A stretch of 1,316 nucleotides of DNA from Escherichia coli (GTDB taxonomy: Bacteria; Pseudomonadota; Gammaproteobacteria; Enterobacterales; Enterobacteriaceae): assembly GCF_003334335.1 (NCBI RefSeq), contig NZ_QOWQ01000112.1; one strand, 5' to 3'. Within the stretch, counting starts at the first letter, position 1. Each line of letters begins with the position of its first letter. Under the pieces are notes generated by a model. The model was not told the DNA's origin and ran no database searches. It was given only the letters and a program-made list of their open reading frames with translations. The translations under genes were made by a program, and so were the position numbers. Shown here piece by piece: positions 399 to 1,316 of the stretch.

Positions 399-1316
399 TT
401 ATTTCACCTGTACCACCACAAACTCATCCGGATCCGGCAGCACCATCAGCGGAGCGGACTGCGTCATGGTGAATTCACAGGACGGATCGCCCACGGTCAG
501 CCAGTGTTTCGGGTAACGGGAAGAAGCCACCACTCCTTCAGACAACGCCTGTGCATCCTTAATGGCTCCATAGCAACGAATCCCCTCTGCTGCCGTATTC
601 CCCAGCACCAGCGTGCCCTCCGGCAGATAACGTTTTTCGGTACCGTCCTCTGCCACATAAGACGTTTTCGCTACCACAATGGCCAGATCGCCGTAATACC
701 CCTTGAAGGATACCACTGCGCCCAGATCTTTCACTGCCGTTTCGAGTTGTGAGTTTGAACCGCGACGGGTATCCATTTTTTCGCGGAAAAGCTTAAAGCC
801 ATTCAGCAGACGCCAGACGGTACCGTCCATAATGGCAATATTCACAAGACCACTGGCCTGATCACAGAAAAGGTCGATATCATATGTCGGGTCGAACGTG
901 TCACGATCCTGTTTTGACCACTCCTTACCGCTACCTTGTATGATGTTATTCTTCGTCGATCGGCCAAAATCGACTTCAATTTTCTCGAACTGGTCTCCTT
1001 CCATCGTATATTTGCCATACAGCACGGCATTCACCGCCTGCATTTCTTCCACCTGCACAATAGCGTGCTCTTCCTGTTTGAGGTTATCAGTGATGATACG
1101 CAGACGACGGTAGGCCGGGTCGTTCAGCTGAGCCGGATCTTCACCGGGAAGGCGCTCAACCGCCTGCTGGTAATTAAATTCGTGTTTCGGCTTGACGTAG
1201 CCCGGACGCAACACGCGGGTTTCACCACCACGATGGCGCAGCACTTTTCCTTCAACGATCGGGGAGACATAGGCCGCCACCGGCGTTTTTCCGGTAATTT
1301 TGTCCAGCATCACCTC
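399..1316 (-). CDS. E: Major capsid protein, lambda gpE family; 5'-partial, with the N-terminal roughly 35-40 codons beyond the window end
   Basis: Track ORF 399..1313 (-), 304 aa, with stop codon TAA at 401..399. The frame stays open through 1314..1316 (Glu), so the gene runs off the window. The translation aligns along its whole length with lambda gpE as I recall it, sharing blocks such as YVSPIV, PGYVKPKHE, DPAYRR, VEEMQAV, GKYTM, DTRRGSNS-LETAVKDLG, YGD-AIVV, LVLGNT, SAPLM and DPDEF; offset and length fit a protein of about 340 aa. The in-window GTG (1313..1311) and ATG (1310..1308) are unlikely true starts because GAGG abuts them with no spacer. Confidence 0.95.
   Translation of the reverse strand, partial: EVMLDKITGKTPVAAYVSPIVEGKVLRHRGGETRVLRPGYVKPKHEFNYQQAVERLPGEDPAQLNDPAYRRLRIITDNLKQEEHAIVQVEEMQAVNAVLYGKYTMEGDQFEKIEVDFGRSTKNNIIQGSGKEWSKQDRDTFDPTYDIDLFCDQASGLVNIAIMDGTVWRLLNGFKLFREKMDTRRGSNSQLETAVKDLGAVVSFKGYYGDLAIVVAKTSYVAEDGTEKRYLPEGTLVLGNTAAEGIRCYGAIKDAQALSEGVVASSRYPKHWLTVGDPSCEFTMTQSAPLMVLPDPDEFVVVQVK

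Follow-up and report, generated by a model that had tools for sequence, protein, structure and literature searches.

The head genes of phages lambda and 21 are among the closest described counterparts of the locus analysed here, a 1,316-nt stretch of DNA that we refer to as the window. In lambda, the genes E, FI and FII follow one another in a single orientation, and FI reportedly has a role in DNA packaging and is said to be linked genetically to the coat protein. The same order and orientation were found for E and FI in the window and for all three genes in near-identical genomes. The neighbours in phage 21 also match, and consist of a decoration gene of the SHP type, the capsid gene, FI and FII. 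The SHP protein of this phage shows 49% identity with gpD and is able to bind to lambda capsids (PMC7602432). The window is occupied by two minus-strand genes in the same orientation, the capsid gene and then FI. With a probability of about 97%, the large reading frame encodes the HK97-fold major capsid protein of a phage 21/lambda-type head (late) operon in an E. coli prophage.

The capsid frame was open over 305 visible codons, from the window edge at 1316 to its stop codon. A preliminary description of this DNA had counted a 304-aa translation. The attribution of that translation to the gpE family held, but the count had started at an internal GTG. The true start lies 37 codons beyond the window, and the near-identical chromosomal gene encodes 342 aa. 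The full-length capsid and FI products (342 and 122 aa, respectively) were read from a chromosome with a single base difference from the window. This lone difference, A versus C at position 453, is a synonymous change in the third base of an Ala codon. The spacer between the capsid stop codon and the FI start codon is 51 nt long. The coordinates of all features are collected in Table 1.

Table 1. Features of the 1,316-nt window.
Feature	Position	Strand	Details
Major capsid protein gene (lambda E / phage 21 type)	399..1316	-	Residues 38-342 of 342; stop codon 399-401; cut by the window edge
FI-type DNA-packaging chaperone gene	1..347	-	ATG 347-345; residues 1-115 of 122; last 7 codons beyond position 1
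Extra Ala codon relative to lambda gpE	651..653	-	Residue 259 of the full-length protein; from alignments
Terminator-like hairpin in the E-FI spacer	363..391	-	Stem 371-391, U run 363-369; from terminator scan and folding
Shine-Dalgarno-like GGGAG	354..358	-	6 nt upstream of the FI start codon; read from the sequence

The family of the capsid protein was supported by several independent searches. Against the Pfam family PF03864 (Phage_cap_E), the protein gave an E-value of 4.5e-58 and a score of 197.3, with query residues 1-304 aligned to model positions 34-329 of 329, thus reaching the C-terminal end of the model. Model positions 1-33 remained unmatched; their counterpart is the stretch of 37 residues encoded outside the window. 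The 'major head protein' families of PHROGs matched with E-values from 1e-157 to 1e-113. Among solved structures in the PDB, the best match was lambda gpE (7vi9; E = 4e-119, 400 bits, residues 39-340), and a second lambda gpE structure (7sj5) matched with an E-value of about 1e-119. These results bore out the initial assignment of the protein as a lambda-type major capsid protein. The next entry after those of lambda gpE was 3BQW, annotated as 'putative capsid protein of prophage', which belongs to the same family and aligned over its full length (E = 1.6e-86). It is more distant from the capsid protein than lambda gpE is, with 293 bits against 400. On the strength of the 61% identity and the E-value of 4e-119 to 7vi9, the capsid protein is predicted to have the HK97-type fold. 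An NCBIfam scan returned no family for either protein. Since the Pfam, PHROGs and PDB matches are unambiguous, this blank is a gap in the library and is uninformative. No result spoke against the identity of either gene.

At the sequence level, the capsid protein was clearly related to lambda gpE (341 aa) but much closer to its counterpart in phage 21. By BLASTP, 185 of the 304 residues in the visible part were identical to gpE (61%; E = 4e-137). The global identity over the full-length protein was 60.2%, so that about 40% of residues differ. The two proteins were collinear over the whole visible length. The preliminary description had stated as much and had seen no obvious insertions or deletions; the alignments agreed except for one single-residue gap, an extra Ala in the protein encoded here. 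At the DNA level, most 100-base windows showed about 50-70% identity to lambda, a level too low for megablast, and lambda was absent among the megablast matches listed. Among phage genomes, the window matched those of E. coli phages of the phage 21-like kind. In phage 21 itself, the major capsid protein (gene 7, M81255; CPT_21_08, OL657228) also has 342 aa and was 95.6% identical without gaps, and its gene shared 87-97% of bases per 100-base window, about 90% overall (90.6% in megablast). The earlier wording, 'diverged from lambda', therefore stands as far as the 60-61% identity to gpE is concerned, but the gene is described more exactly as a phage 21-type allele.

The closest phage record was PhiR5_1 (PV340545), an induced E. 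coli lambdoid phage with 95.4% DNA identity across the whole window, whose capsid protein was 97.7% identical without gaps. The capsid protein of phage 21 differed from that of the window at 15 amino acids, one part of which is the change of Ala-Arg to Ser-Cys in the GDP(AR)EF segment. This segment reads GDP-SC-EF in the window (471-476, minus strand; capsid residues 316-317) and GDP-AR-EF in lambda, phage 21 and PhiR5_1. The GDP-SC-EF variant was also present in the chromosomal copies examined (protein WP_000522596.1).

The distribution of substitutions gave further information on the reading frame. Within the visible capsid coding sequence, 61 of the 77 nucleotide differences from phage 21 lay at codon position 3, and the changed codons comprised 58 synonymous and 15 non-synonymous ones. 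The comparison with PhiR5_1 gave a similar picture, with 39 of 48 capsid differences at codon position 3. This excess of third-position changes in the minus-strand capsid frame indicated purifying selection. A chance resemblance to gpE and FI was excluded by the E-values of the searches and also by the substitution pattern relative to phage 21.

On the plus strand, a reading frame of 230 aa at 60-752, which runs antisense to both genes, was also considered; a shadow ORF is the most likely explanation for it. The frame is free of stops over 241 codons here and over 148 in PhiR5_1, and in phage 21 it is interrupted in another way. We rejected this frame because it was not conserved in phage 21 or PhiR5_1 and because the substitutions fit the minus-strand frame.

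The window matched 1928 records, which came from 1923 of the 5426 complete E. coli genomes and were almost all chromosomal. Eighty-four records reached at least 99% identity. Among the matches listed, at least 15 chromosomes were 99.9% identical in DNA, with the genes annotated 'major capsid protein' and 'DNA-packaging protein FI'. The genomic context was read in two chromosomes with 99.9% identity to the window, NZ_AP022173 and B1.H1.18 (NZ_CP146564). In both genomes, the genes beyond position 1316 encode a head decoration protein, an S49 peptidase (C/Nu3-like), the portal, a W-like joining protein, and the large and small terminase subunits. Before position 1, both carry genes for FII-like, Z-like, U-family and V-like proteins, G, T, the tape measure protein, M, L, K, I, J, lom and the tail fibre. 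The preliminary description had predicted the decoration, scaffold and portal genes on the one side and FII, Z, U and V on the other, and both sets were present at the expected places.

The arrangement in NZ_AP022173 followed the lambda order throughout the head and tail modules. Further on were lysis genes, a Q-type antiterminator, replication and immunity genes, and genes for an exonuclease, an excisionase and an integrase. The whole element, a prophage, measures about 49 kb and has inserted at the 3' end of ompW. At one end, int and xis adjoin the intact ompW, and a partial ompW duplicate is found at the opposite end. The search for prophage boundaries and an integrase that had been proposed earlier was thus successful in this chromosome. 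These ompW features correspond to L001 1154-1279 and L005 7925-9739 (NZ_AP022173). Other genes of this prophage include three for tRNAs (Arg, Arg, Ile), hokD, dicB and a queH-like gene. In B1.H1.18, the same module with identical protein accessions was located at the ydfJ/pinQ/tfaQ (Qin) site and not at ompW. These observations agreed with the initial view that the stretch belongs to a lambdoid phage or prophage and does not represent a novel system; it is an ordinary head module found in E. coli chromosomes.

The same data bear on two other origins of the capsid gene. One is an isolated or co-opted gene, for example from a gene-transfer-agent remnant, from an encapsulin-like compartment or from a satellite. 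The preliminary description had noted that flanking genes unrelated to phage morphogenesis would suggest an isolated capsid gene. Full head and tail clusters were found instead in both NZ_AP022173 and B1.H1.18, where terminase, portal, protease, decoration, capsid, FI, FII and tail genes form a complete cluster in lambda order, and FI follows the capsid gene within the window itself. We found no supporting evidence for an isolated or co-opted capsid gene, and this origin is hardly credible unless the source of the window departs from every near-identical genome. It is also very improbable, though somewhat less so, that the window derives from a free phage genome and not from an integrated prophage. 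Related sequences do occur in isolated phages, with 95.4% identity in PhiR5_1 and 90.6% in phage 21. However, the best phage record falls well short of the 99.9% identity seen in at least 15 chromosomes, and 84 records reach 99% or more.

Integration in a chromosome leaves the question of whether the prophage is functional. E. coli lambdoid prophages are often defective, and the capsid gene could be a decaying or merely retained relic in a cryptic element of this kind. In the B1.H1.18 module at the Qin site, an IS200C transposase gene lies between the decoration and capsid genes, just past the right edge of the window (L006 21559-22017), and could impair capsid expression in that strain. Several pseudogenes were also present at the tail-fibre end of the ompW prophage in NZ_AP022173. 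Against decay, both reading frames were open over their visible parts, and the capsid gene was under strong purifying selection. The head, tail, lysis, Q, replication and int/xis genes of NZ_AP022173 were all annotated as intact. In addition, the induced ECOR phages of the PhiR series, with 92-95% identical DNA, were propagated on E. coli C and K-12. On balance, we regard a defective copy as unlikely, although it is the most serious of the alternatives.

The second gene of the window was identified as FI with similar clarity. It matched PHROG 92, 'DNA packaging chaperone FI', with an E-value of 8e-39, and residues 1-114 aligned to profile positions 1-120 of 128. Its location on the same strand as the capsid gene confirmed the order and orientation of E and FI that had been described before. 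The RefSeq name for the identical protein is gpFI / DNA-packaging protein FI. In the near-identical genomes, the 3' end of FI is overlapped by an FII-type head-tail joining gene. The similarity to lambda FI was low, with 28% identity and an E-value of 5e-8 (BLASTP), and the FI of the window is 10 residues shorter. Phage 21 has a ribosome-binding site annotated where the window has the sequence GGGAG.

In contrast to the capsid protein, FI was only 58% identical to its counterpart in phage 21. The megablast matches to phage 21-like genomes all ended at window position 225-226, close to FI codon 41. In 100-base windows, the DNA identity to phage 21 was about 90% across the capsid gene and fell to 45-65% over window positions 1-200. 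The identity to PhiR5_1, however, stayed at 92-100% over the region of FI where phage 21 drops, and the FI proteins were 95.1% identical, so PhiR5_1 carries the same FI allele. The low FI identity to phage 21, together with the loss of DNA identity at about position 225, pointed to a mosaic junction inside FI near codon 41. Mosaic junctions of this kind are typical of lambdoid phages.

The spacer between the two genes contained a stable stem-loop. On the coding strand, the stem has nine pairs, seven of which are G-C, and is followed by seven U residues. The predicted folding energy was -23.9 kcal/mol (z = -2.5). Phage 21 and PhiR5_1 have a stem-loop identical to that of the window. At the corresponding place between E and FI, the hairpin of lambda is an unrelated one, a GC stem of 7 bp closed by a UUCG loop. 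The hairpin thus appears to be kept by position rather than by sequence between the lambda and phage 21-type modules. Late transcription in lambdoid phages is Q-antiterminated, which makes two roles plausible for this putative element, namely stopping read-through in the lysogen or shielding the 3' end of the capsid mRNA. We further suggest, very tentatively, that the hairpin might set a large ratio of capsid to FI expression, through partial termination or 3'-end protection, and that the junction in FI might lie at the border of a domain, where phages swap FI modules. Taken jointly, these two proposals are rather less likely to be right than wrong.

Further scans of the window gave negative results. 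Two plus-strand terminator-like sites, at 955-974 and 1279-1295, have weak stems and lie antisense within the capsid coding sequence; we attribute them to chance, and shuffled sequences give about one such site. A scan of the window for sigma-70-like promoters found none. A permissive Rfam scan of both strands of the window yielded no family. The single match, to a eukaryotic snoRNA, was a sub-threshold chance hit at 20.9 bits against a gathering score of 50.

The likely function of the two proteins can be outlined by analogy with lambda and phage 21, on which we rely here for the pathway of assembly, for the numbers of copies and for what FI does. The capsid protein would be the shell subunit, the counterpart of lambda gpE, with about 415 copies per shell if the lambda number applies. 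The portal would be the site at which the subunits, together with a scaffold of the Nu3 type and an S49 protease of the C type, build a T=7 procapsid. Terminase would then package DNA into the procapsid, the shell would expand, and the expanded shell would be stabilized by trimers of a D/SHP-type decoration protein. FI may act as an accessory chaperone that helps the terminase-DNA complex and the procapsid to meet productively, as in lambda.

Taken together, these data make the window a marker of a lambdoid prophage whose head is of the phage 21 type; about one in three complete E. coli genomes has a match to this kind. The RefSeq names of both genes are already correct, and the module is ordinary and already known, with nothing novel in it. 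It has little significance beyond annotation, and there is no need to follow up the stretch further. Among phage records, PhiR5_1 comes closest, and yet the prophages resident in many E. coli chromosomes are more similar to the window. Judged by sequence comparison, the capsid gene is a phage 21-type allele of E and not an uncharacterised divergent of lambda. This phage 21 type, which is Jouyvirus-like, appears to cover only the capsid gene and the first 41 or so codons of FI, and the remainder of FI appears to be a different allele.
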